IMG/VR virus record: IMGVR_UViG_3300025087_000082
Location: 1 to 56,426 of that record
DNA from: a virus
Length of the DNA stretch: 56,426 bases
Direction: 5' to 3' (one strand)
Part shown: one piece after another, positions 4,179 to 28,565 of the stretch
Layout of the letters: every line of letters starts with the position of its first letter
Position numbering within the stretch: the first letter of the stretch is position 1
Notes under the pieces: model-generated
Told to the model about the DNA's origin: nothing
Seen by the model: only the letters and a program-made list of their open reading frames with translations
The model's database searches: none
Program-made: the position numbers and the translations under genes

Positions 4179-5828
4179 ATGCCGACCACATTCCCAACAA
4201 CACTCGATGACTTTACCAACCCGACCCCGGCGGACAATCTCTCTACGCCCGCCGTCCTACACTCGACCCAGCACGCCAGCATCAACGACGCGGTGGAGGC
4301 GCTTGAAGCGAAGGTCGGGGTAGATAGCTCGGCGGTCACGGCGTCGTTGGATTACAAGGTCGCCAACAGACAGCCGCTTGACGCAACCCTGACCAGCATC
4401 GCCCTGCTCGGCACAGCCGCCGACAAGATGCTTTATACAACGGCGCTGGATACGTGGGCAGAAACGGGGCTGTCTGCCTTCGCACGCACGATCTTGGACG
4501 ATGCAAACGGGACGGCGGTTCTGGCTACGATTGGCGGACAGGCCGCGCTTACCCTGCCCCTCTCGGCAGCCAACGGCGGGACTGGTGTCGCGAACACAGG
4601 CACGATAACCAACGCATCGAATACAACCATCACAGGCGGGGGAACGGTTGCGCTGGGAGGCTTCACGCTGACTGTTCCGGCGACAGGGACGGCGGCGCTG
4701 CTGGCGACGGCGAATGTGTTTACCGCCATTCAAAAAATAAATGTTAATTCTACTTTGGCCTTGCTAGCGGAGCAGGATGGGGTAAAAGATAATGTCTTTA
4801 TTGTGGACACTACAAACGCAAGAGTTGGTATCAATGGCGTACCAACAACCAGTCTTACGCTCACACAAAAAGCAACGACGGACGGATTTATTTTCACAGG
4901 TATGTCTATTGGGGGTGTGGACACCGGGACTGGTTGTGTTGTGGCATTGGGATATAACGCCCTAGCTAATAAGCAGTTATGGTTTGGAGATGTTGATTAT
5001 TTGGGATTGTCCACTGGATATTTTAACAGATTAGTAATCTCAACTGGAGCGCCATTATGGGACGTTGTGAGGGGCGACAACTTAGCGTATGGAGCTTTGA
5101 ATCTTGGCAAAACTGGCGGCTCAAAAGTTGTTATTGGCGACTCAAGCATTTCTGCAACTCAGCCAGGTTCGCAGTTATATATTGGTGGAGGGGTATCCAT
5201 AGGTTCGGATGCATCTTATCGATCTGCTGCTGCTCCAGCAAGCGGTATGATAATTGCCGGGAGCGTTGGGATTGGTAGTACTTCTGCTTCTGCAAAATTG
5301 CATATTATCGATTCGACCACAACGACAAACGCGGTACTAGAAGTTGAACGAATACAGGCAATTGTTTCAACGGCATCAACAGGTGGTTCGGCAGGGTTTG
5401 GTGTTGGGCTGTCATGGTATGCAGAGACAGCCACCAACAACACTTCCCAGCCTCAAGGAATTATCTCAACCTCATGGATTGATGCAACCAACGCCACACG
5501 CAAAGCCAAACTGTCTCTCTCAGCCTACGACACGGCGGCGCGCTTGGGGATGGAGATAGAAGCCAGCGGGACGGCGGCGCGGCTGGCATTTTACGGCGGG
5601 ACCACGGTTGTGCGCGGTGCGGCACTCACTACACAACTGACGACCATCACGTTCACAGCCCCGACGCCGGATTACGCAATCCAGAACTTGACCAATGTTG
5701 CGCCTTATGGGTTCGTTACCCAGGATGAGGGCAACACGGTTCTATCAGTTATCGCCAACTTGCAAACACGAGTAGCGGAATTGGAAGCAAGACTCGGTTC
5801 TGCAACGGGCGTAAATCTATTTGCATAA
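4179..5828 (+). CDS. Fibre-like structural protein (tail-fibre-type N-terminus, C-terminal coiled coil)
   Basis: The N-terminus FPTTLDDFTNPTPADNLSTPAVLHSTQHASINDAVEALEAKVG resembles the conserved phage minor-tail/fibre N-terminal motif. The body is Gly/Thr/Ala-rich and the end is LQTRVAELEARLG. Confidence 0.5.
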   Translation: MPTTFPTTLDDFTNPTPADNLSTPAVLHSTQHASINDAVEALEAKVGVDSSAVTASLDYKVANRQPLDATLTSIALLGTAADKMLYTTALDTWAETGLSAFARTILDDANGTAVLATIGGQAALTLPLSAANGGTGVANTGTITNASNTTITGGGTVALGGFTLTVPATGTAALLATANVFTAIQKINVNSTLALLAEQDGVKDNVFIVDTTNARVGINGVPTTSLTLTQKATTDGFIFTGMSIGGVDTGTGCVVALGYNALANKQLWFGDVDYLGLSTGYFNRLVISTGAPLWDVVRGDNLAYGALNLGKTGGSKVVIGDSSISATQPGSQLYIGGGVSIGSDASYRSAAAPASGMIIAGSVGIGSTSASAKLHIIDSTTTTNAVLEVERIQAIVSTASTGGSAGFGVGLSWYAETATNNTSQPQGIISTSWIDATNATRKAKLSLSAYDTAARLGMEIEASGTAARLAFYGGTTVVRGAALTTQLTTITFTAPTPDYAIQNLTNVAPYGFVTQDEGNTVLSVIANLQTRVAELEARLGSATGVNLFA

Positions 5829-6366: not shown

Positions 6367-6551
6367 TGGCGATCACCGACTACGATGACGCTATCAACTA
6401 CGACGCGGCAATCCCCTACAACGGGGCGGAAGCAGCGGCGGATAATGCTGGCTGGCTTCTCATGCACGCGCCTGTGCGCCGCCGTCCGCCGGAGATAGAC
6501 GATGAGGACGAATTACTCGCCTGGTACGTCCTTGAGGTGATGGATGAATAA
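6366..6551 (+). CDS. Hypothetical acidic protein
   Basis: 61-aa ORF whose start overlaps the upstream stop. Confidence 0.4.
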   Translation: MAITDYDDAINYDAAIPYNGAEAAADNAGWLLMHAPVRRRPPEIDDEDELLAWYVLEVMDE

Positions 6552-7239
6552 AACCATCCTACTCGCCTCCCTGCGTGCGGCTGTGCGGCTAGTGCCGGAA
6601 GTCCTCCCGCACCTCTCCGTAGCCACACTCGCGGCGCTGAAAGCATCCGGCGATTACACCTCTATCCGCGCCGAGATGAGCGGCGAGATCCACGATGCGA
6701 TATACGATTATCTAACCGGCTCAGGCTACATCACGATATACAAGGCGTTGATGGCTGCGGCTATCTCGAAGGCATATGTCGAGACGGCGGACGTGGGCTA
6801 TACAGACGCTGGTGCGGAATTGCCGCTTGACGCGGAGACGGCTGCTTGGGCGCGGGCGGAACTGGACGCGCAGCTTAGTTTCGTGGATCAACTCTTTGAG
6901 AATCTGCGGGAGCTACGGAAAGGCGACCTGTCTGCACAGGCAGGCGTAAACGCCACAGCGGAGGCGCTGGGGAGAGCGAATGGATGGGCAAGTGGTCTTG
7001 ATGGTTTCTATAATGAGGCGGTGTTGCGCGGGTCAAGAAACCAGTTGGTAACATGGCATTTGGGCGCAACCGAGAAGCATTGCGCCACGTGCATCAGCCT
7101 GGACGGTAAGAGGCATCGAATAAGCTGGCTCATTGACAATAATTACATCCCACGCAAGCCGGGGGCAGGTATGGATTGCAACGGATATAACTGCGATTGC
7201 TCGATAACAGACAAAGATGGAAACGAGTTTACGATTTGA
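6544..7239 (+). CDS. Minor head / head-morphogenesis protein (Mu F / SPP1 gp7-like C-terminus)
   Basis: Cys-rich C-terminus HLGATEKHCATCISLDGKRH...PGAGMDCNGYNCDC resembles the Phage_Mu_F domain. Its position near the portal fits. Confidence 0.5.
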   Translation: MNKTILLASLRAAVRLVPEVLPHLSVATLAALKASGDYTSIRAEMSGEIHDAIYDYLTGSGYITIYKALMAAAISKAYVETADVGYTDAGAELPLDAETAAWARAELDAQLSFVDQLFENLRELRKGDLSAQAGVNATAEALGRANGWASGLDGFYNEAVLRGSRNQLVTWHLGATEKHCATCISLDGKRHRISWLIDNNYIPRKPGAGMDCNGYNCDCSITDKDGNEFTI

Positions 7240-7242
7240 GAC

Positions 7243-7271
7243 TTTTAAAATTCGAACATGCGGACTATAAT
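7243..7271 (+). promoter_or_regulatory. Possible sigma70-type promoter ahead of the sugar island
   Basis: TTTTAA, 17 nt spacer, TATAAT (7266..7271). The -35 is weak. Confidence 0.3.
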
Positions 7272-7294
7272 TGAATCGAGTAGAAAGGAAAAAG

Positions 7295-7531
7295 ATGATA
7301 GCCCGAAATGATATAGCCCGAAATGATATTGACCTGAATATGAACCTGGTTTTCAAATGTCGTCACTGTGGAAACACTATGGATAAAATCTTTGCTTCTG
7401 TTTACTGGTGTTCAAGATGTGGAACACTCAGAACGGGGCGTAAAGGAATAGTAAGCGTATATGTTCCAAGTTTCTATGACATCGAACTACCCGCCGAGCG
7501 GCTGGAACTGCTAGAAAGCACGGACGAGTGA
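7295..7531 (+). CDS. Small zinc-ribbon protein
   Basis: CRHCGN...CSRCG motifs. GAAAGGAAAAAG lies before the ATG at 7295. A 15-bp tandem repeat encodes ARNDIARNDI. Confidence 0.55.
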   Translation: MIARNDIARNDIDLNMNLVFKCRHCGNTMDKIFASVYWCSRCGTLRTGRKGIVSVYVPSFYDIELPAERLELLESTDE

Positions 7532-8217
7532 TTGCCCTTGTCACCGGCGGCTCACGCGGCATCGGCGCGGCGTGTGTCTGTGCGCTGAAGGACGCGGGGC
7601 ATACCGTCGCGGTTGTGGCAAGGACAAGGGCGGATTGTGACATGTTCATCAAAGCGGACTTATCGAATGAACAAGATCGGGAACACATCGTTGATAAGGT
7701 CGAGAGAGAACTAGGCGGGCTGGATATTCTCGTCAATAACGCGGGCTATCAACATCATGCACCTGTGACGGCTTACTGGCTGTCTGAGTGGCAATATCAA
7801 CTCGATCTGATTCTCACCGCCCCATTTGACCTATCCCAGCAGGCCGCCCGGCACATGCTTACCCACGGCGGCGGACACATCATCAATATCCTGTCCACGT
7901 CCGCCTTCCAGGGAGCGCGCAACATATCCGGCTATGTCGCCGCGAAACATGGTCTGCTCGGCCTCACGCGGGCGATGGCAATAGAGCTTGCACCGCTGAT
8001 AAGAGTTAATGCAATCGCGCCCGGTCTCATGGATACGCAGATGACGGCGGAGTACATTGATTTGCAGAGGCGGGAACTGCTGGAAAGCATAACGCCCGCG
8101 GGCAGATTCGGAAGGCCGGAGGAGATCGCTGGGGCGCTGATGTACTTAATTCAAAGTGAGTTTGTGTACGGTCAAACCATCGTGATTGATGGGGGATGGC
8201 TGGCGAAGAATGGCTAA
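7528..8217 (+). CDS. Short-chain dehydrogenase/reductase (FabG/ketoreductase-like)
   Basis: Motifs TGGSRGIG, NNAG and YVAAKHG (Y-x3-K). GTG start overlaps the upstream stop. Confidence 0.85.
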   Translation: MIALVTGGSRGIGAACVCALKDAGHTVAVVARTRADCDMFIKADLSNEQDREHIVDKVERELGGLDILVNNAGYQHHAPVTAYWLSEWQYQLDLILTAPFDLSQQAARHMLTHGGGHIINILSTSAFQGARNISGYVAAKHGLLGLTRAMAIELAPLIRVNAIAPGLMDTQMTAEYIDLQRRELLESITPAGRFGRPEEIAGALMYLIQSEFVYGQTIVIDGGWLAKNG

Positions 8218-8458
8218 AACGGTTTCACTTATTGGCGGCCCCGCTGACGGCGCAAAGGTGGATGTTTCAGAAGGCGTTGCCTATGTGATAGTGCCTTTCG
8301 CACAAGACATAAATTTATTGATAGACGAGAGCGACGTACTCCCCATTATTGGGTGGGATGATTGGGGGCCAATATTGAAGAGGGGTGATGTTCTACAGGC
8401 TCGTTATAACATCAATGGCAACATTGCCACCTATGAAGAAAGCGGGAGTGATGGCTAA
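8210..8458 (+). CDS. Hypothetical protein
   Basis: ATG at 8210 overlaps the SDR stop. 82 aa. Confidence 0.4.
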   Translation: MAKTVSLIGGPADGAKVDVSEGVAYVIVPFAQDINLLIDESDVLPIIGWDDWGPILKRGDVLQARYNINGNIATYEESGSDG

Positions 8459-9467
8459 GATAATCCAGGCTAAGGATTTGCGTGGGAAAAGAACTGACCG
8501 TCTTATAGACGTTGTGCCATTATCAACACCCTGGACGCTCTTTTTGGAGCCGACAAATTTATGCCAATATCGCTGCCGATATTGTCCTACGGGTGACACT
8601 GACCTACTCCGCAAGATAGGCAGAAAGAACACGCTGATGGATTGGGGTTTATGGGTCAAAGTCGTGGATGATCTGCGGGCGTTCCCTAATCGCATCCGGC
8701 AGTGCAATGTTTACAAAGATGGTGAGAGTTTGCTTCATCCCCGTTTCTGTGAGATGGTGCGATACCTTCGCGACGCTGATACAGTTGAACGCATCTGGTT
8801 GAAAACTAATGGATCAAAACTCTCCCCCTCCTACAACGCCCGCCTCGTTACCTGCGGCCTGGACATGATTGGCGTATCAGTCCAACACGTCCACGCGCAA
8901 GGCTTCTACGACATCGCCCGCGTGCGGATCGATTATGAGGAGTATCGTGCCAACGTGCTTGATCTGTACCAGCGGAGCCGGGATACCGGCGTACAGATTA
9001 GCACGAAGATAGCTGATGTTGGATTTAGCGACGCCGACAAGCAGAAATTCATAGACGACTTTAGTGATCGCTGCGACTTCATCGCAATAGAAGGTTTACA
9101 CGGCTGGTCTACGTCTGATTTGAAAGACTGGCGGCTGGGTACGGATAACAGCTTCGATGGCTCGCCGCGAACGCACAAGATTGCCTGCCCGTTGACGATG
9201 TACATGCTCACGGTAAACAGCAATGGCGATATATCCGTGTGTAATGATGACTTTGCCCATTATCACCAGCTTGGAAACGTAAACACAGAATCCCTTATTG
9301 ACATTTGGAACGGGAAACGTTTACGGGATTTTCGCCTGATGCACCTTGAGGGTAAACGAAGCGAGAACCGCGCATGTGGTACGTGTGATTATGTTTTAGC
9401 TTTGCCAGCCGTTGACAATATTGACGAATACCGCGAAGAATTTGCAGAAAGGTTGCGTGTTGTATGA
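8451..9467 (+). CDS. Radical SAM enzyme with C-terminal SPASM/twitch-type Cys cluster
   Basis: CQYRCRYC (CxxxCxxC) near the N-terminus. C-terminal cysteines in CPLTMY...SVCNDD...CGTCDY. GGGAG lies before the ATG at 8451. Confidence 0.85.
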   Translation: MAKIIQAKDLRGKRTDRLIDVVPLSTPWTLFLEPTNLCQYRCRYCPTGDTDLLRKIGRKNTLMDWGLWVKVVDDLRAFPNRIRQCNVYKDGESLLHPRFCEMVRYLRDADTVERIWLKTNGSKLSPSYNARLVTCGLDMIGVSVQHVHAQGFYDIARVRIDYEEYRANVLDLYQRSRDTGVQISTKIADVGFSDADKQKFIDDFSDRCDFIAIEGLHGWSTSDLKDWRLGTDNSFDGSPRTHKIACPLTMYMLTVNSNGDISVCNDDFAHYHQLGNVNTESLIDIWNGKRLRDFRLMHLEGKRSENRACGTCDYVLALPAVDNIDEYREEFAERLRVV

Positions 9468-10492
9468 GGCCTTGCCCCGTCTGTGAACATCTCTCCCGCA
9501 CCGAAGTATTTCGTATGCCCTACCGCATCCCCGACTCTTGGCCTCTGCCGTCTGAGATTATCTGGTACACCTGTGACGCCTGTTCGATGTTTTACGGAGA
9601 TGGTAATTTTGATCAAGCGATGCTCAACGAATACTACACCAAATACTACGGCTACGGCGTCAACAACCCCTCCAATATCGAGCGCCTGAAAATGGACGCG
9701 GTACGGATAGCGGAACTGGAACGCAACCGGGAGGCCGTCATCGTGGACTTCGGCGGAGCGGGCGATGATGGCAAAAGTATCATCGTTGGCATGTTGCAGG
9801 ACAGGGGATATACGAACGCCGTCTGCGTGGGTGCAGGCGATCCCCTGCCCCAGCAATGTGACCTTATCTATGCCTCCCACGTCATCGAGCATGTCTACGA
9901 TTTGCCTAAGACGATGGAACGGATAGACGATGCGCTCGCGCCTGATGGCTTGCTCATCATGGACGGACCAGACGCGACGGGCCTGCTTCAAAAGTGGAAG
10001 ATGCCGATATTGGACTTCAATACCAAGCACCTAAATCATTTCACGTTGCGGGATTATCTCAATTTGGGATACCATCACGGCTTCGAATTGGTTGACCTGC
10101 CTACGCAGGCAGGCGTGCGGAAGTACGAACTTGAGAACGCGCCCGCGTATCAATTGCAATTCAGGCGGCTGGACGTGGCGCGGGAGTCAGCGAAACACAT
10201 CACGGATAACATATCCGCCCGCGTGGATAGGCTCAAAACGCTTGCGGGCTTGCCGCTCAACGTCTGGGGCATGGGAGATATTACATGGCATCTGCTAGCA
10301 CAGGTGGAACTCAATATACTTGACTATATTGATAACGATCCCGCGTACCGCGGGCAGACCTACAACGGCAAGCCGGTACAGGAACGACCTACCAACGCCG
10401 CGCCGATCCTGATAATGGCGCAGGGACAGCGGCAACGGCTGATCGAAAATATCAGGAAGGCGGGTATAGAAAACCCGATCATTGAAACATGA
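9464..10492 (+). CDS. SAM-dependent methyltransferase with N-terminal Zn-ribbon (NDP-hexose C-methyltransferase-like architecture)
   Basis: CPVCEH...CDACSMF zinc ribbon, motif I VDFGGAGDDG, and an extra C-terminal domain. The architecture matches TylC3-type sugar C-methyltransferases. Confidence 0.7.
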   Translation: MRPCPVCEHLSRTEVFRMPYRIPDSWPLPSEIIWYTCDACSMFYGDGNFDQAMLNEYYTKYYGYGVNNPSNIERLKMDAVRIAELERNREAVIVDFGGAGDDGKSIIVGMLQDRGYTNAVCVGAGDPLPQQCDLIYASHVIEHVYDLPKTMERIDDALAPDGLLIMDGPDATGLLQKWKMPILDFNTKHLNHFTLRDYLNLGYHHGFELVDLPTQAGVRKYELENAPAYQLQFRRLDVARESAKHITDNISARVDRLKTLAGLPLNVWGMGDITWHLLAQVELNILDYIDNDPAYRGQTYNGKPVQERPTNAAPILIMAQGQRQRLIENIRKAGIENPIIET

Positions 10493-10998
10493 ACGTATCA
10501 CAAATAATTTGGGAAAGGCTGAAACAAGAAACTGAAGTTGTATTCTACCTTCCTGGCGGCGGCTCCGGGCCGCTGGTGGATGCGCTTGGCGCGTCGGGAT
10601 TGCGCGCCGTGTGCTGCCTACATGAGCAGGGCTGCGGCTACGCGGCGGTCGGGTATGCACAGTATCACGGATTCGGCGTGGCGTTGGTCACGTCGGGTCC
10701 TGGGGTCACTAATATTCTCACGCCTGTACTTGCTGCATGGGTAGACAGTATCGCCCTGTTGGTGATAAGCGGCCAAGTCATGCGGAAGTGGCTAGCGCTT
10801 GATGATATGCGATCACGCGGGACACAGGAGGGGCCGACAATAGAAATGGTGAGGCCGATAGTCAAGATAGCGCATCAGCCGAGCGTGAGTGCGGGAATAT
10901 TAGAAGTACTGGACGGGATGATTGAGATAGCAAAAGAAGGGCGTCCCGGCCCCGTGTGGCTCGACATCCCGCAAGACATACAGGCCGCCGATGTATAA
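10489..10998 (+). CDS. ThDP-dependent enzyme, N-terminal PYR domain (ALS/YerE-like), split gene part 1
   Basis: HEQGCGYAAVGYA...VTSGPGVTN...GPVWLDIPQD is typical of TPP_enzyme_N. It ends 8 nt inside the next ORF. Confidence 0.8.
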   Translation: MNVSQIIWERLKQETEVVFYLPGGGSGPLVDALGASGLRAVCCLHEQGCGYAAVGYAQYHGFGVALVTSGPGVTNILTPVLAAWVDSIALLVISGQVMRKWLALDDMRSRGTQEGPTIEMVRPIVKIAHQPSVSAGILEVLDGMIEIAKEGRPGPVWLDIPQDIQAADV

Positions 10999-12127
10999 GC
11001 CAGTCATCCTCATCGGCAACGGCATCCGCAATAACCCGGCGCTTATAAATCACCTTACTTCTTTACAAGTGCCGTGCATTACAACTTGGATGGCGGCTGA
11101 TCTACTGTCAGAAGATTCCCCCGTCTATTGCGGCAGACCTGGAATCTTCGGCCAGCGCGCATCTTGCATAATTCAGCAAAAAGCCACCCATCTCTATTGC
11201 TTCGGCGCACGGCTGGACGGTGAACAAGTCGCCTATGATTATGACCGCTTCGCGCCGAATGCGGAGATATATATTTATGATATAGACCCCGCAGAGGCAC
11301 AGAAGTTCCCGAAGCGTTACCACGTTACGCAGACCCTTGATTGTAGAGATGACATTGATTTTCTTCCGGCCTTTGAACCGCCTCATCGCGACTGGCTCAA
11401 CTGGTGCAAGGCGCTCTACACCCGCTTCCGGCCTGAACTGGACGGGAGACAGGAGACGGGAGACGGAGGCGGCGATCATTTCGTAGACCCGTTCACGTTC
11501 ACGCGACTCCTGCATGACCACAGCCAGTCGGATGACGTGTTCGCTATCGGCTCATCGGGCAACGCCCCGACTGTGTTCTTCCAGGCGTATAAAGTCCGAG
11601 CGGGGCAGCGTATCTCCAACGTCTGCACAATCGGCGCAATGGGCGCTGATATTCCGATGGCTCTCGGCTCTGCGCTGGCATCCGGGCGGCGCACTATCTG
11701 CGTGACGGGCGACGGCGGCTTTGCGATGAACGCGCAGGAACTGGAGACGATACGCAGGCTGCGCCTGCCGATTATCTTTTTCGTGATGAATAACGGCGGC
11801 TATAACTCCATCCGCGTGGGACAGCTTGCGCGCTTCGGGCGCGTGACGGGTGCCAACCCTGCCACAGGGCTGACGCTCCCCAGCATAGAAGCAATTGCGG
11901 AGGCATATCGCCTCTGTTACATGCCCTTGCATGGGCGGGATTTGCCGAACTTCGCCCGATGCTTCGGGATTGCGCCGATGGTCGTGGAAGTGTTTGTTGA
12001 CCCCGAATGGCAGCAGTTGCCGCGCGTGATGGCAAGTGGTAATCCGATCAGGACAGATGACATGGAGAATATGTATCCATATCTACCTGAGAATGAATTG
12101 AGAGAGATTATGGAGTGGGACGGGTAA
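10991..12127 (+). CDS. ThDP-dependent enzyme, central and PP domains (ALS/YerE-like), split gene part 2
   Basis: Central domain KPVILIGNG...PCITTW. ThDP motif GDGGFAMNAQELETIRRLRLPIIFFVMNNGGY. Confidence 0.85.
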   Translation: MYKPVILIGNGIRNNPALINHLTSLQVPCITTWMAADLLSEDSPVYCGRPGIFGQRASCIIQQKATHLYCFGARLDGEQVAYDYDRFAPNAEIYIYDIDPAEAQKFPKRYHVTQTLDCRDDIDFLPAFEPPHRDWLNWCKALYTRFRPELDGRQETGDGGGDHFVDPFTFTRLLHDHSQSDDVFAIGSSGNAPTVFFQAYKVRAGQRISNVCTIGAMGADIPMALGSALASGRRTICVTGDGGFAMNAQELETIRRLRLPIIFFVMNNGGYNSIRVGQLARFGRVTGANPATGLTLPSIEAIAEAYRLCYMPLHGRDLPNFARCFGIAPMVVEVFVDPEWQQLPRVMASGNPIRTDDMENMYPYLPENELREIMEWDG

Positions 12128-12155
12128 CCGCCACACTTCGGAAAGGTTTGAAAAA

Positions 12156-12377
12156 ATGAAAAAGACTATCTTCCTGATTTTAGTGCTGGTATTATTACTG
12201 ACTGCTTGTGGAGGCAGTAAACATACCTACGAAATGACGCTGACGTCTGGAGAGACAATTACGGTGGAGTACGCTGTCTGTAAACCGGGATACGGTGTTA
12301 TCGAATGTTGGAGTAATGTGATGCAACGCTTTCCAGACGCCTCCTATAGTGCAGTAACATTCAAGAAGATTAAATAA
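12156..12377 (+). CDS. Small lipoprotein
   Basis: Signal peptide with lipobox: MKKTIFLILVLVLLLTAC. Confidence 0.6.
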   Translation: MKKTIFLILVLVLLLTACGGSKHTYEMTLTSGETITVEYAVCKPGYGVIECWSNVMQRFPDASYSAVTFKKIK

Positions 12378-12393
12378 TAAGTATATTCAATTG

Positions 12394-12415
12394 TCGCCTT
12401 GCGCGCTGTCGCTGG
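12394..12415 (+). repeat. 22-bp direct repeat, copy 1 (TCGCCTTGCGCGCTGTCGCTGG)
   Basis: Recurs at 12621..12642 with one mismatch. Each copy lies roughly 13-17 nt after the stop of a small ORF. Confidence 0.85.
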
Positions 12416-12434
12416 AGACAAGAAAGGTTTTGAA

Positions 12435-12608
12435 ATGGCACTAACAATAGTTTTGATTTTGATGATTTTCCTGCCCCTGGTTGTTGGCAGTTACATGCAC
12501 TATACTTTGGGCATTACATCAGGAATGGATATTGCCGCGACGGTTTTACTGTATATCGTGGAAATGGCAGTGTTTTATTCCGTGATGATAAAGCGCCCTC
12601 AAAAGTAA
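12435..12608 (+). CDS. Small two-TM membrane protein
   Basis: MALTIVLILMIFLPLVVGSY... GAAAGG lies before the ATG at 12435. Confidence 0.5.
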   Translation: MALTIVLILMIFLPLVVGSYMHYTLGITSGMDIAATVLLYIVEMAVFYSVMIKRPQK

Positions 12609-12620
12609 CCTGTTGTATTT

Positions 12621-12642
12621 TCGCCTAGCGCGCTGTCGCTGG
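12621..12642 (+). repeat. 22-bp direct repeat, copy 2 (TCGCCTAGCGCGCTGTCGCTGG)
   Basis: See 12394..12415. Confidence 0.85.
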
Positions 12643-12713
12643 TAACAAAACTAATATGTATCAATCTCAGTGTATCGTTGTATACCTGTTACTTGATAAA
12701 GGTAACGGTATAT

Positions 12714-13844
12714 ATGAAAGTCCCTATTTCGGGGCAAGTGACTGGAAAGGAAGAAGCGGATAACGTGATAGAAGTCGCGAACTCGCAGAGTTACGGCGGA
12801 TTCATTTGGACGAACCGCTTCGAGCGCGGCTTCGCTCGATTCATGGGTGCGCGTGAGGCGATCCTGTGTAATAGCGGTTCGAGTGCAAATTTACTGGCAT
12901 TATCTGCTCTAGAGCTTCCGAAAGGCTCGGAGGTCATCACCACGGCGGTGAACTTCCCCACGACGGTCAATTGCATCATTCAGCTTGGCTTAGTGCCGGT
13001 GTTTGTGGACAGTGACCCAAAGACGCTGAACTGCGCGGACGGCTGGGAATATTCTCCCGACAATGTAAAAGCCATTATTATGGCGCATGCGCTTGGAAAC
13101 CCCGTAGACCTGACTTATTTGTCGAGCTATGGAATACCTATCATCGAAGATTGCTGCGACGCGGTAGGGAGCACGATCAACGGGCAGATGGTTGGTCGTC
13201 GCGGCATAATGTCTACCGTCTCATTTTACCCGGCGCATCACATCACCACCGGCGAAGGTGGCATGGTACTGACTGATAGCCCGCGGCTGAGGAAGATTAT
13301 CGAGAGTTACCGGGATTGGGGGCGGGACTGCTTCTGTGAGCCAGGAAAGGATAATACCTGCGGGAAACGATTTGACTATGAAATAGATCATAAATATATG
13401 TACTCGCGTATCGGGTGGAATCTCAAGGCAAGCGATTTCCAAGCCGCCGTAGGTGTGGCGCAACTGGATAGGCTTGAAGGGTTTATCGAAAAGCGGCGCG
13501 AGAACTGGACATATTTGTATAATAACTTGAAGGATTTACCGATTGAGATCGTCCAGGCTTCGCCGGGGAGCAACCCTTCATGGTTCGGCTTTGCTTTTGT
13601 TACAGAACACCGTAACAAATTGGCGCGGTATCTGGATGAGCGTGGAGTCGGGAATAGGCCCGCAATGGGCGGCAATCTGCTGAGACAATCCGCGTATAAG
13701 AACATAGAGCATCGCGTCATTGGTAATTTAGATGGCGCCAATATCATTCATGAAAAAGCGATTTGGGTCGGCGTCTTTCCAGGGATCAATGAGGAAATGA
13801 GAGAGTACCAAGCGGAAACCATTCGGAGTTTTTACAATGGCTAA
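12714..13844 (+). CDS. rfbH: CDP-6-deoxy-D-xylo-4-hexulose-3-dehydrase (E1 / RfbH / DdhC family, PMP- and [2Fe-2S]-dependent)
   Basis: NSGSSANLLAL. SFYPAHHITTGEGG has His in place of the PLP lysine. RDWGRDCFCEPGKDNTCGKRF, DHKYMYSRIGWNLK and PSWFGF are also present. C-X57-C-X1-C-X7-C spacing is intact. Confidence 0.9.
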   Translation: MKVPISGQVTGKEEADNVIEVANSQSYGGFIWTNRFERGFARFMGAREAILCNSGSSANLLALSALELPKGSEVITTAVNFPTTVNCIIQLGLVPVFVDSDPKTLNCADGWEYSPDNVKAIIMAHALGNPVDLTYLSSYGIPIIEDCCDAVGSTINGQMVGRRGIMSTVSFYPAHHITTGEGGMVLTDSPRLRKIIESYRDWGRDCFCEPGKDNTCGKRFDYEIDHKYMYSRIGWNLKASDFQAAVGVAQLDRLEGFIEKRRENWTYLYNNLKDLPIEIVQASPGSNPSWFGFAFVTEHRNKLARYLDERGVGNRPAMGGNLLRQSAYKNIEHRVIGNLDGANIIHEKAIWVGVFPGINEEMREYQAETIRSFYNG

Positions 13845-14085
13845 AACAAACAAGATCACGAAATTTGAGATTCGATCATCTGACGAATTGACAGACCTGA
13901 CATCGTTCGTAAAAGGCATGGAAGTAAAGCCGTACCATCCATCGCTTTTGCGTCGTTTGTTCAATTGGCTTTGGTGGCAATGGTTCAGGCATAAAATCAA
14001 CAGGTCATGGAGGAAAATATCAAGAGGTGCAACGATTGAGATTGAATTTGTAAAACGAATACGTGAGCCGTGGAGATGGAACTGA
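13837..14085 (+). CDS. Hypothetical basic Trp-rich protein
   Basis: 82-aa ORF that overlaps both neighbours. Confidence 0.4.
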   Translation: MAKTNKITKFEIRSSDELTDLTSFVKGMEVKPYHPSLLRRLFNWLWWQWFRHKINRSWRKISRGATIEIEFVKRIREPWRWN

Positions 14086-14087
14086 TA

Positions 14088-14765
14088 ATGGATAAAGTTT
14101 TAGTCGTAGGCGGTACAGGCTTCTGTGGCTTTTGGATGCGGCAAACCGCCCCGCCTGATTTACGTATCAGTTACATCGGCAAAAGCGACTACGAACTCCG
14201 GCACTGGAAATGGATGACCTGGGATTACATCGTGCATCTGGCGAATATCTCGCCGTATGAGGTTCTGGAATATGCACAGCCATTCGGTATCCGCGTGCTG
14301 TATGCTTCGAGCGGTATTGTCTATCACGATGAGAATGATACCGAGTACAGGCAGAATAAACTCGATTGGGAAAAAGAGTGCCTGGATAGCGGCGTCGATG
14401 TGGTCGTTTGTCGGTTGTTTGCATTTCATGGGGAAAGGCTATCAGCAGATCACGCGATAGTAGCATTTGAAAATGCGGCAAGAAAAGGCGAGCCACTGAG
14501 AATATTTGGGGATGGAAATACTATTAGAACATATATGAGCGGCGAAGATATGGCGCGGCGAATGTGGGCTGTGTTACTGCATGGCGAGCGCGGCGAATGC
14601 TACGACATCGGAGGCATTACGCCGATCACGATGCTTGAATTGGCAAAAAAGATTATCAAGGATAATAACTCAAAGTCAGAAATAGTTGTCGAGAATGGCA
14701 AAGACCCAATGCCTTGTTACGTGCCAGTAGATGCAGAAAAAACAGAGAGATTGCTAGATAAGTAA
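14088..14765 (+). CDS. NAD(P)-dependent epimerase/reductase (extended SDR, short form)
   Basis: Rossmann motif VLVVGGTGFCG and a later Y-x3-K-like region. The track ORF begins at 14070. Confidence 0.6.
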   Translation: MDKVLVVGGTGFCGFWMRQTAPPDLRISYIGKSDYELRHWKWMTWDYIVHLANISPYEVLEYAQPFGIRVLYASSGIVYHDENDTEYRQNKLDWEKECLDSGVDVVVCRLFAFHGERLSADHAIVAFENAARKGEPLRIFGDGNTIRTYMSGEDMARRMWAVLLHGERGECYDIGGITPITMLELAKKIIKDNNSKSEIVVENGKDPMPCYVPVDAEKTERLLDK

Positions 14766-14857
14766 TCTCTCTGCTCCCTACCGTACCTCACCCCGCCTAA
14801 CCAAGCCGTGCCAAACCAGAACCTACCGCACCATACCACGCCACGCCCAGCCGGGCC
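14766..14857 (+). terminator. C-rich, G-poor convergent intergenic tract (possible rut / Rho-dependent termination site)
   Basis: About 92 nt with C greatly exceeding G on the plus strand (ccctaccgtacctcaccccgcc...acctaccgcaccataccacgccacgcc). No hairpin is present. It lies between convergent genes. Confidence 0.25.
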
Positions 14858-15439
14858 TTACTTGTGACCATTCACGCGTTCGGAAGTAAAGCGTCCATAC
14901 TGCGGACGCCAGTCACCTAAACCAACCTGAGAGCCAGAGGCATTAAGCCATCTGTCAACCTGTGCGGGATTGACTAGTGTATCTTCCACATTAAGAGTAA
15001 CTATGGCAGACCATTCTCGAAAGATGGGACGCATCCGTGAAACACGGGAAGTCTGTACGCGAACAATAGAACTAAAACGGAATTGCTCATCATCCCATAA
15101 TTCATTAGCTGTACGCGGTCCAGCATATTCAAGCGGCGCATGTTCCAGACAAAAATAACCAGACTTTGAAGTCTGCCCCTCTTTGGATTTCTTAGCGCCT
15201 CCCAAGATTGTTGCTTCGATCATGTACGCGGGCAGGACGGGGCCAGACTCATCAAGATACAAGCCCGCCATAAATTCAAGGCGCGCCATTTCCTCATGAT
15301 CCGCGTCTGTCTTTGCGCGTTTGGATGAAATCTGTTTGATTAACTTCGACCACTTGTTTGTTGGGTCTGCCGTCTGCCCGTTGTGCATTATCAGCGGGGC
15401 GGATGAGTTCAGTTTGTATGTTAGTGTTTTCCAAGCCAT
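14858..15439 (-). CDS. Hypothetical protein (193 aa)
   Basis: AGGAG lies 7 nt before the ATG at 15439. Confidence 0.6.
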   Translation of the reverse strand: MAWKTLTYKLNSSAPLIMHNGQTADPTNKWSKLIKQISSKRAKTDADHEEMARLEFMAGLYLDESGPVLPAYMIEATILGGAKKSKEGQTSKSGYFCLEHAPLEYAGPRTANELWDDEQFRFSSIVRVQTSRVSRMRPIFREWSAIVTLNVEDTLVNPAQVDRWLNASGSQVGLGDWRPQYGRFTSERVNGHK

Positions 15440-15743
15440 GATATATCTCCTGTCTTATTTGAATGTTGGTCGTTATCGTTGTGGGTTCGTGTTCCAGTCG
15501 TCCATATCTATCTTCACGGATTACGTCCGTAATGAGGTTATGGCAACGGGAGCAAACCGTTATTAGATCATCTTCGATTGATTCGTTTGGAATTTTTGCA
15601 TAAGCAGATGGACGATGGTGTACCTCCAATTGATAGTGTGTCCCGTCCTCATCACACAGGCGGCAACGATACCCGTCTAGTTTCTTCCTGGCTTTACGTT
15701 TTTCGTCCCACTCTTTAGACGCAATATATTTGTTGTAATCCAT
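15294..15743 (-). CDS. HNH endonuclease
   Basis: CRLCDEDG...LEVHHRP...CSRCHNLI. Its 3' end overlaps the next gene by 146 nt. Confidence 0.8.
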   Translation of the reverse strand: MDYNKYIASKEWDEKRKARKKLDGYRCRLCDEDGTHYQLEVHHRPSAYAKIPNESIEDDLITVCSRCHNLITDVIREDRYGRLEHEPTTITTNIQIRQEIYHGLENTNIQTELIRPADNAQRADGRPNKQVVEVNQTDFIQTRKDRRGS

Positions 15744-16183: not shown

Positions 16184-18268
16184 ATGCCGAACGTATCGGA
16201 ATACGACGATAAAGATAAGTGGATGGGGGCTTGTATGCCTGCCATGCTGGAAGAGGGGAAAGAACAGGACGAAGCCGCCGCCGCTTGCATGAGCATATGG
16301 GGGGAGAAGAAGTCGTTCTATGGGATGTCTGTGGAAGATGCGGTCAAGCACTTCCTGAAAATCGGCGCGCGGCACACGCGCAAAGAAACAGAGGCGTTCC
16401 AGACCGTGCATGACATCATGGTGGAAAACGGCGCTGAGTGTGAAAAGCCAGGGGGTGAAATTCCTATGATGGAGGGTAAATCGCTGGATGAGGAATATAT
16501 CTACCCCGGCGATGCGGTCAAAGCCACGTCATTGGACGGCGGCGCGGTCAAATTAGGGGGTTATCTGATCCGCTTCGGGGATTCAAAAAATCCAGACCTG
16601 GAAGGCGATTACTTCACGAAAAATACCGACTTCGGCGACGCCAAACAATCCGATACATGGTTTAACCACCGTTTACCGATCCGCGTCAAGAAACATAACA
16701 ACATTGAAGTGAAATACACAGAGCCGCTATCCAATAAAGCGACACTCGCCATTGATGACGTTGGAGTGTTTGCCGAGGTGGTGATCGAAGCGCGTAATGA
16801 GTACGAAAAGACAATCGCGGAGCTGGGGCTTGCGGGGAAATTAGCCTGGTCGTCTGGAACTGCATCGCATCTTGTAGACCGCAAAGCAATCAAGAACGGC
16901 GTGTGGGAAGTCACGCGCTGGCGCTTAGGTCTGGACGCGTCGCTTACCCCGCATCCGGCAGAGTTCCGCAAGACCAATCAGATACTGCCAATTAAATCGT
17001 TACTAACTTCTCATGCGGCGTTGCCCGTTGAGGAGGATAACCAACCAAACCAAAACAAACAAACCAATCAACCTGTTACCAAACAAAGGGAGAACATCAT
17101 GGAAGAGTTAGAAATCAAATCCGCCGTAGATAAGGCGGTCGCTGACGCGCTTGCAGAGCGCGAAGCGAAATCCCAGGCGGAAGCGCAGAGGGCGGCAGAA
17201 CTGAAGGCCGCAGAGGACGCCGGGTACAAAAAGGCCGTTGAGGAGTTGAAAGAGCACGGGCCGCAGACTTTCTACCACCCCACTGAGCCGACCGATGATG
17301 ACAACGATGGCATCGGCGCATTCAAGTCCTGGCTCAAGACCGGGCAGGAAAATCAAGGGCTGCTCCGACCTGATTCGTCTTTCGACAACATCAAGGCAGG
17401 CAAGGCCGCCTGGAACATCACGACCGGAGCAAGCGGTGGGTTCCTGGTTCCCGATCCCTTGTACAACCAGATCATCGCCAAGCGCGATATCATGTCATGG
17501 GCGCGGCAAGTCCCTTGCACGTTCCTGACGACCCCTTCCGATCATCTGTTGGTCCCGCGTGAGAATACCAGCCTGACCGATTTTATTTTGACGGCTGAGG
17601 CTGGCACGTACGATGAGAATGAGGGAACCGTATCACAGAAAGACCTCATCCTGTACAAGTACACCAAATTGACCAAGATGAACGAAGAATTCTTGATGTA
17701 CAACGGCACGAACTGGGAAGCCTGGTTTACCAATGCTCTTGGGCGCGCAGTTGCCAACACCGAGAACACCATCTTCACCACAGGTACAGGCACGGCACAG
17801 CCTGAGGGTATCGTGACCGGCGCGACGGTTGCAAATACGACCGCCACGACCGACATCATTCTGCCTTCGGAACTCTCCGCGCTCATCGGCTATCTCGGCG
17901 GCGGGTACAACGTCCCAAGCGAGTCCGCCATGCTCATGGCGAATGTGACCAAGTGGTATCTCAAGGGCAGCGGTGGAACGTCCGCGGTCCCGTTTGCTTA
18001 CGTGCAGACCCCGCAGGATGGCGACTTTTTCGGCTACAAGGCCGTCATCGACGACGACCTTGAACCATATACCACAGCATCGGCAAAGTGTATTGTGTTC
18101 GGCAACTTCTCCTACTACGCGGTAGTCGAGAAGCCGGGCATGGTCGTACAGCGCAATCCGTACCTGTACATGGCGACCGGGCAGATCGGCATCTTTGCGT
18201 CGATCTTCCGCGGTGGCGGAGTGCTTCAAAGCGAAGCATTCTATTACCTGACCAACAAGGCCAGCTAA
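16184..18268 (+). CDS. Fused prohead protease - scaffold (coiled coil) - HK97-fold major capsid protein
   Basis: N-terminal GGYLIRFGDSKNPDLEGDYFTKNTDFG is prohead protease-like. A central Ala/Glu/Lys coiled coil spans about 305-350 aa. The C-terminal ~330 aa are HK97-MCP-like (GGFLVPDPLYNQII...). Confidence 0.75.
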   Translation: MPNVSEYDDKDKWMGACMPAMLEEGKEQDEAAAACMSIWGEKKSFYGMSVEDAVKHFLKIGARHTRKETEAFQTVHDIMVENGAECEKPGGEIPMMEGKSLDEEYIYPGDAVKATSLDGGAVKLGGYLIRFGDSKNPDLEGDYFTKNTDFGDAKQSDTWFNHRLPIRVKKHNNIEVKYTEPLSNKATLAIDDVGVFAEVVIEARNEYEKTIAELGLAGKLAWSSGTASHLVDRKAIKNGVWEVTRWRLGLDASLTPHPAEFRKTNQILPIKSLLTSHAALPVEEDNQPNQNKQTNQPVTKQRENIMEELEIKSAVDKAVADALAEREAKSQAEAQRAAELKAAEDAGYKKAVEELKEHGPQTFYHPTEPTDDDNDGIGAFKSWLKTGQENQGLLRPDSSFDNIKAGKAAWNITTGASGGFLVPDPLYNQIIAKRDIMSWARQVPCTFLTTPSDHLLVPRENTSLTDFILTAEAGTYDENEGTVSQKDLILYKYTKLTKMNEEFLMYNGTNWEAWFTNALGRAVANTENTIFTTGTGTAQPEGIVTGATVANTTATTDIILPSELSALIGYLGGGYNVPSESAMLMANVTKWYLKGSGGTSAVPFAYVQTPQDGDFFGYKAVIDDDLEPYTTASAKCIVFGNFSYYAVVEKPGMVVQRNPYLYMATGQIGIFASIFRGGGVLQSEAFYYLTNKAS

Positions 18269-18727: not shown

Positions 18728-18770
18728 GGGGGAGGCGAGCAATTGCCTCCCCCGGAAAGCGTTTTGTTTT
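18728..18770 (+). terminator. Rho-independent terminator
   Basis: GGGGGAGGC-8 nt-GCCTCCCCC stem followed by a T-rich tract (gttttgtttt). Confidence 0.7.
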
Positions 18771-19515
18771 GCACATATTCCACTGGGTTCCCTCATCTGG
18801 CGCGCCGCCTCCGTGGTCGTGCGTCCACTCGTGGGTAAACCTGCTGTTGCCCGAGGGCGCAAAGCGGACATTTAGACAGAGCGGCGCGGGATCGGTTCGC
18901 GTCATCTGGAACGATATTGTGCGGGAGTTTCTCGCAACCGACGCCGAATGGATGTTCAGCACTCACCACGATGTTGTATTTGTCCCTGAAACACTTACGC
19001 GCCTTTTGTCCTGGGATAAGCCTCTCATATCGGCGCTAGTGTTCATGAGACATAACCCGGTCGTCCCGCAGATTTGGAAGTCCTACGACGGCGATGAGGG
19101 CCATTATGTGATGCGGATCAATGATACGCGTGATTGGTTCTACGACCACAAAGAGTGGATCAAGTTCGGGCCGTTCCTAATAGACCCCTGCCCGGACGAT
19201 GCGCTTGTCTCTGTCGGCTTCACCGCAACCGCCTGCACGCTAATACACCGGACTGTGCTTGAGGACATCCGCGCAAAAGTTCCCGACCAGGGAGACGGCC
19301 TGTGGTTCGCCTGCGACAACGAGACTTCGGGCGGCGGGGAAGATCGTCGCTTCTACGAGTACGCGCGGCAAGCCGGGTATGAAGCGTTTGTAGACCGCTC
19401 CTGTATAGCAGGTCATGTAGCTGGCGATATTCCCACATCCAGCGCAGATTTTATCGCCTGGGATAGCGTGAGCGATTTTCATAACACAGGAGAGCCGGAG
19501 GCGGTGGCGGAATGA
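18769..19515 (+). CDS. Glycosyltransferase (GT-A / family 2-like)
   Basis: WMFSTHHDVVFVPETLTRLL, CTLIHRTVLEDI and GGGEDRRFYEYARQAGYEAFVD. TTG start. Confidence 0.65.
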   Translation: MHIFHWVPSSGAPPPWSCVHSWVNLLLPEGAKRTFRQSGAGSVRVIWNDIVREFLATDAEWMFSTHHDVVFVPETLTRLLSWDKPLISALVFMRHNPVVPQIWKSYDGDEGHYVMRINDTRDWFYDHKEWIKFGPFLIDPCPDDALVSVGFTATACTLIHRTVLEDIRAKVPDQGDGLWFACDNETSGGGEDRRFYEYARQAGYEAFVDRSCIAGHVAGDIPTSSADFIAWDSVSDFHNTGEPEAVAE

Positions 19516-28298: not shown

Positions 28299-28565
28299 TT
28301 ACCAAGCACCTTTTTCGGCAAATACAGATTCATCTTTGCTGTCAATGCGCTCTCTGATTTCCTTGATACGGCGGACAATCTCATCAACTCTTGGCTTCAT
28401 TTCTTGATGATACGTTTCGCCTTGCCAGATGTGCCAGTTATTCCATCCGCGAATAGTTGCAGTAAAGCGGCGAAAGCCAAGATCAGGGTCAATCAACATA
28501 CTCTCTGTAATGGTTGCGCCTGCTACCCATTTATGTCTTGCGAGTATTTTCCATTTCTTAGTCAT
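28299..28565 (-). CDS. Hypothetical protein co-oriented with HNH
   Basis: 88-aa ORF overlapping the HNH gene stop. Confidence 0.45.
   Translation of the reverse strand: MTKKWKILARHKWVAGATITESMLIDPDLGFRRFTATIRGWNNWHIWQGETYHQEMKPRVDEIVRRIKEIRERIDSKDESVFAEKGAW

Follow-up and report, generated by a model that had tools for sequence, protein, structure and literature searches.

Phage-borne sugar genes usually encode single transferases or common nucleotide-sugar enzymes. The scheme described for branched sugars of bacteria combines a keto-acid-forming enzyme, a YerE-like enzyme and a reductase, in some cases with a methyltransferase, and YerE-like enzymes accept C4–C8 functionalised keto acids (PMC9306805); JanthE (PDB 8RPH) is one such YerE-like carboligase (PMC12188165). 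Virion glycosylation by phage glycosyltransferases has a precedent in mycobacteriophages (Freeman et al. 2023, as cited in PMC11256854). Here we describe an island of sugar-tailoring genes (positions 7271-14765) in the head module of an uncultured siphophage from groundwater, represented by IMG/VR record IMGVR_UViG_3300025087_000082 (56,426 nucleotides; hereafter "the window", meaning this whole stretch). It is on balance probable, if only by a little, that the island is a late-operon cassette derived from bacterial glycan clusters, which would tailor cytidine diphosphate (CDP)-4-keto-6-deoxyglucose of the host to a yersiniose-like, methylated 3,6-dideoxyhexose nucleotide, with the virion slightly favoured as its destination.

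Enzymes encoded by the island

The island comprises twelve plus-strand open reading frames (ORFs), seven for enzymes and five for small proteins, with overlapping stops and starts; junctions between island genes overlap by 4-26 nt, and the arrangement looks like an operon. A co-directional enzyme island in the head module had been proposed in the initial annotation, and all enzyme genes it listed were found, as were its two tiny membrane or lipoprotein genes; three further small ORFs had gone unlisted. In order, the genes are as follows.

7295-7531, plus strand: Cys4 (CxxC...CxxC) zinc-ribbon/rubredoxin-like protein, 78-86 amino acids (aa)
7528-8217, plus strand: classical short-chain dehydrogenase/reductase (SDR), a FabG/KduD-like ketoreductase (adh_short E 2e-44; motifs TGGSRGIG and S...YVAAK)
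8210-8458, plus strand: 82-aa ORF, conserved in close relatives only
8433-9467, plus strand: radical S-adenosylmethionine (SAM) enzyme with one twitch-like auxiliary-cluster C-terminal domain, BtrN/DesII-like (Pfam Radical_SAM and SPASM)
9464-10492, plus strand: SAM methyltransferase with N-terminal Cys4 zinc ribbon and extra C-terminal domain (TcaB9/KijD1/MtmC architecture)
10489-10998, plus strand: thiamine diphosphate (ThDP) carboligase, N-terminal (PYR-domain) subunit, 169 aa (TPP_enzyme_N 3e-28)
10991-12127, plus strand: ThDP carboligase, middle and PP-domain subunit, 378 aa (TPP_enzyme_M and TPP_enzyme_C)
12156-12377, plus strand: lipoprotein, 73 aa (signal peptide, lipobox LLTAC; weak LPAM_1 match)
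12435-12608, plus strand: protein with two transmembrane helices, 57 aa, accessory and missing in diverged relatives
12714-13844, plus strand: E1-type pyridoxamine phosphate (PMP)/[2Fe-2S] nucleoside diphosphate (NDP)-4-keto-6-deoxyhexose 3-dehydratase (RfbH/DdhC) (NCBIfam equivalog, PDB match)
13837-14085, plus strand: 82-aa ORF
14076-14765, plus strand: short extended SDR, 229 aa (Epimerase 3.8e-13; motifs GGTGFCG, SSGIVY and YRQNK)

The E1 protein scores above the cut-off of the NCBIfam RfbH equivalog model NF011936 (437 bits; cut-off 423) and matches Yersinia E1 in the PDB (3BCX; E 4.7e-99). The His-for-Lys exchange is kept, with SFYPAHHIT aligned to FYPAHHIT of wild-type E1 (AKH in the 3BB8 variant), and AHH or PHH is present in 12 of the 15 phage and bacterial E1 homologues aligned. 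IEDCCDA and DCFCEPGKDNTC align to the E1 [2Fe-2S] motif C...C-x-C-x7-C, with DCFC-x7-C matched; C-x-C-x7-C is retained in all 15 homologues, and the position of the first cysteine varies. Thus the gene, called an unmistakable E1/RfbH/DdhC in the initial annotation, deserves that name, having passed the equivalog cut-off and kept both the exchange and the Fe-S cysteines. For a dedicated E3 (DdhD/AscD) partner, the window contains no Fer2, flavin adenine dinucleotide (FAD) or nicotinamide adenine dinucleotide (NAD) reductase gene, and none was seen in the homologous bacterial loci.

The two ThDP ORFs lie in different frames and share the overlap ATGTATAA. The PYR, middle and PP domains of the three-domain enzyme that had been annotated are all present, only spread over two overlapping ORFs (169 + 378 aa), a departure from the single polypeptide of ~550-620 aa typical of YerE-like enzymes. 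The catalytic HEQ glutamate in the N half and the GDG...NN ThDP motif in the middle + C (M+C) half are both intact. When the halves are fused in silico, their best PDB match is JanthE (8RPH; 4e-62) versus 1.6e-52 for acetolactate synthase (ALS); YerE-likeness is judged here via JanthE. NCBIfam ALS models return 100-127 bits against cut-offs of 538-1084. The assignment to the ALS/YerE type therefore holds, with a YerE-like enzyme as best match, and a true acetolactate synthase, which would have undone the sugar interpretation, is at odds with scores so far under the cut-offs. The ThDP gene adjoins or lies near the E1 gene in phage and bacterial loci, and we take the two subunits together to be a predicted YerE-like enzyme.

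The split removes only the ~35-residue linker between the PYR and middle domains. The best 120 relatives of the N subunit (58-100% identity) are all stand-alone N-domain proteins of 125-199 aa, and the N / M+C split is found in >115 distinct protein clusters, persisting where the portal protein is only 35% identical to that of the window. Among related phages (whose loci carry L numbers here) the ThDP gene has three states: intact (L031, 4979-6571, 530 aa; L051, 546 aa; ~600 aa in bacterial homologues), N / M+C, and N+M / C, the last being a second, independent position (L018, 10253-11931; L033, 4309-7027). The exact site of the N / M+C break is occupied by a GIY-YIG/NUMOD3 endonuclease ORF in L020 (13666-14652) and L009 (335-1006), and the L020 endonuclease is 29% identical to the GIY-YIG/NUMOD3 ORF at 227-946 of the window; in the window, the N / M+C split is kept with no endonuclease at the break. 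In our reading, drawn from comparison of these gene states, the split ThDP gene is no pseudogene but encodes a stable two-subunit enzyme that arose at a homing-endonuclease site. An assembly error or a programmed frameshift was ruled out, given the independent assemblies, the >115 clusters and the simple absence of the linker. It is very improbable that the cassette is a decaying remnant, its ThDP gene a pseudogene and its operon no longer sugar-making. The break into two frames, an additional break in the second ThDP half of a close variant (L003), and the invasion of the cassette by homing endonucleases would all accord with decay; recurrence of the identical split across these clusters at 58-100% identity and down to 35% portal identity, loss of the linker alone with HEQ and GDG...NN intact, and a stop/start overlap of the kind expected for translational coupling argue against it.

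Pfam matches of the methyltransferase are generic only (Methyltransf_23/11/12), and its best PDB sequence matches are all sugar 3-C-methyltransferases, albeit weak (E 7e-4 to 2e-2). An AlphaFold2 model built from 45 homologues (predicted local distance difference test, pLDDT, 92.5) was searched with Foldseek: the top 18 matches are all KijD1, TcaB9 or MtmC, aligned over the full length of the model (4e-15 to 2e-12), and the next class follows at 1e-7. The zinc-ribbon cysteines C4, C7, C37 and C40 are conserved. The TcaB9 residues probed were Y76, H181, Y222, E224 and H225, compared by way of a weak profile alignment to MtmC in which the invariant H139 and H189 fall on histidines of the RHVFAH and YH-EH stretches and the Glu/Tyr positions are occupied by K188 and D184. 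The model shows the enzyme to be related by predicted fold to NDP-hexose C3-methyltransferases. This agrees with the domain layout claimed for it in the initial annotation; a small-molecule O-methyltransferase, the alternative named there, does not appear at the top of the fold search, which holds NDP-sugar C3-methyltransferases alone.

In the radical-SAM protein, CX3CX2C (C44, C48, C51) and exactly four C-terminal cysteines (C252, C270, C315, C318) are invariant across 43 homologues, and there is no seven-cysteine SPASM motif; the four C-terminal cysteines are the predicted ligands of one auxiliary cluster. BtrN is the sole PDB sequence match, and a Foldseek search with the AlphaFold2 model (pLDDT 93.6) returns BtrN (4.8e-12), DesII (1.2e-10) and SpeY (3e-7), with maturases of ribosomally made peptides that carry post-translational modifications (RiPPs) turning up lower. 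BtrN is a 2-deoxy-scyllo-inosamine dehydrogenase and DesII a thymidine diphosphate (TDP)-4-amino-4,6-dideoxyglucose deaminase, so that their substrates are an aminocyclitol and an NDP-sugar. Candidate reactions for the phage enzyme are dehydrogenation, deamination or dehydration.

The classical SDR has glucose 1-dehydrogenase and 2-deoxy-gluconate 3-dehydrogenase as best PDB matches, and its gene is directly upstream of the radical-SAM gene in almost all phage and bacterial loci examined. The short extended SDR shows weak PDB matches to the C-terminal halves of epimerases and dehydratases, and its homologues measure 212-268 aa in phages and 327-374 aa in bacterial clusters; judged by its motifs, it is a candidate ketoreductase/epimerase in a YerF-like role. 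As the missing 4,6-dehydratase (DdhB) it was rejected, having no TDE dehydratase motif or acid-base pair. Cofactor and catalytic motifs are intact in both proteins, in keeping with the ketoreductase and the short reductase/epimerase initially proposed. The radical-SAM/SPASM call is likewise borne out by the BtrN/DesII-like fold and the invariant cysteines, and every enzyme family assignment of the initial annotation survived testing with Pfam, NCBIfam, PDB and fold searches.

Among the small proteins, the Cys4 protein gives weak desulfoferrodoxin-N and rubredoxin-like matches under the cut-offs (E 1e-4 to 8e-4) and has homologues at 36% identity in L023-L025 and L037. Small Cys4 ORFs, mutually unrelated, occur elsewhere in cassettes (L050, 9749-9994 and 11004-11264; L051, 9082-9321 and 10996-11247; L008, 4140-4346). 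Speculatively, small Cys4 proteins might replace the missing E3 as electron carriers for the Fe-S enzymes. In two related phages the cassette begins with a ferritin-like gene (L007, 4883-5542; L008, 4343-4834), whose product may provide iron to the Fe-S enzymes E1 and radical-SAM, or buffer it for them. The lipoprotein gene is absent from L007-L011, L018 and L031, which makes it accessory and places it outside the conserved core. An RNA-ligase-1-like ORF lies inside the L020 cassette (11319-11915).

Occurrence in phages and bacteria

Against 50,697 deposited phage genomes, neither the island (megablast) nor the radical-SAM protein (tblastn) found a match; tblastn with the ThDP subunit retrieved only host acetolactate-synthase contamination (25-30% identity) and no YerE-like gene, and E1 reached at most 45% identity, in a 2.5-kb fragment, its other matches being ColD-like cyanophage genes (~30%). 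In metagenomes, the radical-SAM protein, the methyltransferase and the ThDP subunit each fall into >115 distinct 90%-identity clusters, on contigs that are all at most ~80 kb, and 84 blocks of the collection list one sister lineage. All phage loci place the cassette after the portal/MuF genes and ahead of the capsid gene, with shuffled internal gene order, and this position is held across phages with different portal and capsid types. The cassette proteins of L007-L011 are 46-71% identical, compared with 35% for the portal and 43% for the capsid protein. Three points suggest that the cassette is functional: it outconserves the portal, both ThDP halves keep their catalytic motifs, and the split form recurs in >115 clusters. 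The recent insertion into the head module that the initial annotation implied gives way to an ancient, conserved feature across a large clade of uncultured phages. Relatives have been metagenomically binned to "Anaerolineales"; this host assignment rests on binning and is not trusted.

A second phage lineage (L016/L032, L035 and L036; duplicate loci L017 and L032) carries uridine diphosphate (UDP)-N-acetylglucosamine 2-epimerase (NeuC), NeuB, SDR, methyltransferase and radical-SAM genes directly before MuF. These phages have no E1 or ThDP gene, and no cytidine monophosphate (CMP)-sugar synthetase was seen in these loci. As the SDR–radical-SAM–methyltransferase trio occurs there with NeuC/NeuB and without E1/ThDP, it forms the constant core, and E1/YerE is, from these gene contents, apparently one of two alternative front ends in the wider phage family. 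In L016, a methylase gene, apparently split into two ORFs, lies inside the sugar cassette (2866-4206).

When 185,579 species genomes were scanned with the profile of the radical-SAM enzyme, four loci emerged, in metagenome-assembled genomes (MAGs) of Omnitrophica, Sedimenticola, a betaproteobacterium and Acidobacteria (L039, L042, L044 and L049). Each has an SDR–radical-SAM pair (43-49% identity) beside an unsplit ThDP gene of ~600 aa; three of the four have an E1 gene (39-43% identity; RfbH 715 bits in L039), and most also have the methyltransferase and an extended SDR of 327-374 aa. Glucose-1-phosphate cytidylyltransferase is encoded in two of them (414 and 446 bits; cut-off 300) and a CDP-glucose-type 4,6-dehydratase in one. 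Divergent NeuB-family enzymes, some cupin-fused and scoring under the NeuB and PseI cut-offs, are present in all four, and a haloacid dehalogenase (HAD) phosphatase, family 2 glycosyltransferases (GT2) and GtrA occur in one or more. A second, distant radical-SAM gene was noted in L039. From their gene content, the MAG loci are envelope-glycan clusters and possible routes to new long-branched sugars; they fit the branched-sugar scheme of keto-acid-forming enzyme, YerE-like enzyme and reductase (PMC9306805). The grouping of E1, a YerE-type enzyme and a reductase had suggested a route to a 4-C-branched 3,6-dideoxyhexose, and bacterial clusters that hold these genes together with CDP-glucose genes strengthen this reasoning. 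By the same comparison, the phage cassette is the tailoring subset of such a bacterial cluster, without activation, 4,6-dehydration, a keto-acid-forming enzyme, E3 or transfer.

The window amounts to approximately a whole siphophage genome of 56.4 kb. Identical proteins are encoded on a 56,452-bp contig (public contig records), the same proteins also occur on many shorter groundwater metagenome contigs (ERZ27254811, ANAN16 scaffolds, PRJNA268031), and the same island gene calls are found on contigs assembled independently from several groundwater samples; because the calls recur in this way, the island is no assembly artefact. The backbone comprises a GIY-YIG endonuclease, large terminase, portal, HK97-type capsid, tape-measure, distal tail (Dit) protein, DnaB helicase and three DNA methyltransferases. 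The Pfam annotations of the contig records show neither an integrase nor a lysogeny module in the window, and a tRNA scan of the window for host clues returned none. An island-specific promoter or terminator was dropped, as signal counts equal chance expectation. Features that flank the island are:

6544-7239: "MuF-like" gene, 231 aa, upstream of the island (no Pfam or PHROG match)
14858-15439, minus strand: phrog_4652 gene, 193 aa, between island and capsid gene
15294-15743, minus strand: HNH endonuclease, between island and capsid gene
16184-18268: capsid gene, HK97-type
18769-19515, plus strand: conserved protein, 248 aa, two genes after the capsid gene, in a place corresponding to that of a glycosyltransferase pair in sister phages

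The island lies, as first described, between the "MuF-like" and capsid genes; "MuF-like" itself is plausible only at the level of motifs, the 231-aa protein resembling a MuF protein with a pairwise E of 0.03. The island is co-directional throughout, but not up to the capsid gene, which two minus-strand genes precede.

Several features of the backbone were noted in passing. In the 694-aa product of the capsid gene, ~300 N-terminal residues are fused to an HK97-type major capsid domain. These residues match proteins of Salinibacter phages, and Peptidase_S78 is a weak match of the L018 homologue, which suggests a prohead protease–capsid fusion. A 549-aa protein at 4179-5828, between the portal and 231-aa genes, has N-terminal similarity to a PHROG tail fibre (6e-9), an odd site for a fibre gene. 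Homing-type endonucleases are numerous: the GIY-YIG/NUMOD3 ORF is just upstream of the large terminase gene, and there are four HNH ORFs (15294-15743, minus; 28558-29085, minus; 42798-43253; 53168-53578, minus). The three N6/N4 DNA methyltransferase genes are at 19512-20138, 49690-50775 and 54922-56139, one of them amid head-tail connector genes. Within 10001-15000, G+C content is uneven (55-57% in the ThDP genes, 46-49% from the lipoprotein gene to the short SDR), which hints at a mosaic origin of the island. The 832-aa portal protein of a sister phage (L052, 1172-3670) has a faint 2',5' RNA ligase match.

Proposed pathway and destination of the product

Contig Pfam annotations, lenient Pfam searches and PHROGs revealed no nucleotidylyltransferase, 4,6-dehydratase or recognisable glycosyltransferase in the 56-kb genome; with E3 lacking as well, the "complete" sugar set of the initial annotation cannot stand. 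Since neither activation nor 4,6-dehydration is encoded, the phage would rely on host precursors. In four phages with differing sugar cassettes (L050, 17757-19576; L051, 14104-15938; L016, 9040-10787; L036, 5281-7118), an orthologous pair of genes for a family 1 glycosyltransferase (GT1) and a small GT-like protein directly follows a capsid gene of 284-287 aa, with 35-77% identity among the four; the L050 cassette is that of the window, split ThDP gene included. In L051, a Laminin_G_3 protein follows the pair. No homologue of the pair was found in the window (tblastn E > 0.09), and those of its relatives that have HK97-type capsids likewise have none. Homologues of the 248-aa protein occur at the same position in L008, L018 (two copies), L026, L027 and L031 (42-61% identity), with the invariant motifs H-x-D-V and GGEDxRF...VDRSC..GH. 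A PDB profile search with this protein was empty, and all its database cluster names are "hypothetical". As its motifs recall GT-A enzymes, it is an unproven candidate for the missing transferase, offered only as a lead.

In the proposed pathway, the host would supply CDP-4-keto-6-deoxy-D-glucose, because the phage has neither a cytidylyltransferase nor a 4,6-dehydratase. That E1 would act on a CDP-linked sugar is hinted at, if indirectly, by the glucose-1-phosphate cytidylyltransferase genes of homologous bacterial clusters. E1, whose family membership is established above, would then remove the 3-hydroxyl using PMP and its [2Fe-2S] cluster; the electron donor would be, at a guess, a reductase of the host or a small Cys4 protein of the phage. 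The two-subunit carboligase, placed by family and gene context, would decarboxylate an alpha-keto acid, for which pyruvate is the simplest candidate, and add the acyl group at C-4, giving a tertiary-alcohol branch. The short extended SDR would reduce or epimerise the product in a YerF-like role. More speculatively, the trio of radical-SAM enzyme, TcaB9-type methyltransferase and classical SDR could add a C-methyl group, achieve further deoxygenation, or both; one chemically sensible order would start with a radical oxidation that turns a hydroxyl into a ketone, go on to methylate the adjacent carbon, and end in reduction. With a long keto acid as donor, the trio might work on the side chain and not on the ring.

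Several observations weigh against this interpretation. Without a glycosyltransferase, nucleotidylyltransferase, 4,6-dehydratase or E3, both substrate supply and acceptor are inferred, and a host that does not make CDP-4-keto-6-deoxyglucose would mean that E1 must use a different NDP-sugar. Pfam gives no match between the methyltransferase and C-methyltransferase-specific domains, and the TcaB9 active-site residues can be aligned in it only in part. The trio also pairs with NeuB, without E1/ThDP, and may act on a keto-acid side chain, not on a hexose ring. The 248-aa protein has no significant family match (hhalign against GT2, E 0.099 over a DxD-like stretch). Finally, the post-MuF region is a common site of accessory genes, and position alone is no proof of a virion role.

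It is quite possible, if short of probable, that the product goes to the virion via a not-yet-recognised transferase; virion glycosylation is favoured because the cassette sits in the head operon and sister phages have transferases. The same chemistry could instead serve host glycosyltransferases that build the sugar into an envelope glycan of the host (O-antigen, capsule, S-layer or wall glycan), where it could change a receptor, block superinfection, or keep the host pathway running past host shut-off. To this destination, which we hold to be rather unlikely, point the lack of a recognisable phage glycosyltransferase across the window, the setting of the bacterial homologues in envelope-glycan clusters with GT2 and GtrA, and the reliance on host CDP-sugar precursors, by which the host probably has a related pathway. 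It fits poorly with an operon located inside late head genes with promoter signal no higher than chance, with the absence of a detectable integrase or lysogeny module, with a capsid-adjacent position conserved across different portal and capsid types, and with sister phages that couple the same cassette to glycosyltransferases of their own beside the capsid gene.

As to the chemistry itself, the product could have a long branch in place of the two-carbon branch of a yersiniose-like sugar, which would put it among the higher-carbon sugars of the caryophyllose/gastriose class. The ThDP enzyme would then take a long host 2-keto-3-deoxy acid as donor (for example a 3-deoxy-D-manno-octulosonic acid (KDO)-like or NeuB-type product), and the trio would tailor the side chain. 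Each of the four bacterial clusters has a NeuB-family gene beside or near its ThDP gene, NeuC/NeuB accompany the trio in L016, L035 and L036 where E1/ThDP are absent, and the donor range of YerE-like enzymes would admit such acids (PMC9306805); however, the window has no NeuB or aldolase gene, sequence cannot reveal donor specificity, and we judge this outcome unlikely. Least credible of all is a non-sugar metabolism consisting of a true acetolactate synthase, FabG, a peptide-modifying SPASM maturase and a small-molecule O-methyltransferase. Database names ("acetolactate synthase large subunit", "FabG-like"), the frequency of peptide maturases among SPASM enzymes, and the RiPP maturases lower in the fold search are what speak for it. 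They are countered by the ALS scores, by a YerE-like enzyme as closest solved ThDP relative, by an E1 above its equivalog cut-off, by radical-SAM and methyltransferase models that match sugar-modifying enzymes first, and by bacterial homologues in CDP-sugar/glycosyltransferase clusters.

Returning to the tailoring of a yersiniose-like sugar for the virion, a bolder form of this proposal, which we hold to be less likely than not, is that a large group of uncultured tailed phages makes its own rare sugar in the head-morphogenesis operon and coats the virion with it via an unrecognised transferase family. The core would be the radical-SAM enzyme, the C-methyltransferase and the SDR, with E1 plus split YerE, or NeuC/NeuB, as exchangeable front ends, and a transferase such as the conserved 248-aa protein after the capsid gene. 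If true, it would be the first case of a phage encoding a route to a branched-chain dideoxy sugar; a radical-SAM enzyme would gain a role in sugar-branch tailoring, and the sugar would probably be new to chemistry.

Comparison with described systems

The bacterial pathway chemistry, of which the phage set is a variant, is already known, as are phage sugar genes and virion glycosylation. No phage-borne E1/YerE pathway was found in the searched literature; in that literature, a phage-borne operon for tailoring a branched dideoxy sugar appears undescribed, and so do the radical-SAM/C-methyltransferase/SDR core, a natural two-subunit YerE-like enzyme and the wide distribution among uncultured phages. 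That many environmental phages conserve, in their head operon, a proposed pathway of six to seven enzymes to a branched, C-methylated dideoxy sugar suggests that a side of phage biology is yet to be explored, whether virion glycan coats or the targeted rewriting of host envelope glycans, and the cassette ties a previously unnoticed SDR–radical-SAM pair to bacterial YerE-type clusters. The two-subunit YerE-like carboligase, the BtrN/DesII-like radical-SAM enzyme and the minimal extended SDR are compact enzymes for chiral tertiary alcohols or branched sugars.

Phage genes split by homing endonucleases are known, for example the nucleotide-metabolism genes of T4-like phages, and the ThDP gene is a clear case of a metabolic enzyme split for good at a homing-endonuclease site. 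It shares with the T4-like split genes the division at an inter-domain linker, an endonuclease at the break (in L020 and L009) and halves kept as subunits; it differs in that the endonuclease of the window is gone and only the split is left, and in the second split position of L018 and L033. The methyltransferase has the zinc ribbon, class I methyltransferase domain and C-terminal domain of TcaB9, KijD1 and MtmC, its exclusive top fold matches, but is ~16% identical to them and ~70 residues shorter, lacks the Pfam domains of that family, and has only two histidines that can tentatively be aligned. With BtrN and DesII, its top fold matches, the radical-SAM enzyme shares the radical-SAM core and a four-cysteine C-terminal domain for one auxiliary cluster, at 14-19% identity and template modelling (TM) scores of 0.5-0.7.

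Mycobacteriophages (Che8 and relatives) resemble the window in having glycan-related genes associated with structural genes, and in the sister phages L050, L051, L016 and L036 the capsid gene is followed by two glycosyltransferase genes. The mycobacteriophages encode transferases and draw on host sugar nucleotides (Freeman et al. 2023, as cited in PMC11256854), whereas the window has a multi-step tailoring pathway and no recognisable transferase, and glycosylation is here a prediction. The clusters for longer-branched sugars (erwiniose ErwE/F/I/J, caryophyllose MMAR_2331-2333, and a Rhodopseudomonas palustris cluster with a methyltransferase; PMC9306805) share the scheme of keto-acid-forming enzyme, YerE-like enzyme and oxidoreductase, at times with a SAM methyltransferase, and the MAG homologues of the phage cassette fit this scheme. 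Unlike those clusters, the MAG homologues use NeuB-family enzymes in place of class II aldolases and have an SDR–radical-SAM pair that the reviews consulted do not describe, and the phage lacks a keto-acid-forming enzyme altogether.

The yersiniose A pathway of Yersinia pseudotuberculosis (ddhA-D, yerE, yerF) has in common with the phage cassette E1/DdhC, a YerE-type carboligase, an NAD(P)H reductase and, as predicted for the phage, a CDP-4-keto-6-deoxyhexose substrate. In contrast to it, the phage has no ddhA, ddhB, ddhD (E3) or transferase, its ThDP enzyme is made as two polypeptides, and it adds a radical-SAM enzyme, a C-methyltransferase-type enzyme and a second SDR, all located in a head operon.

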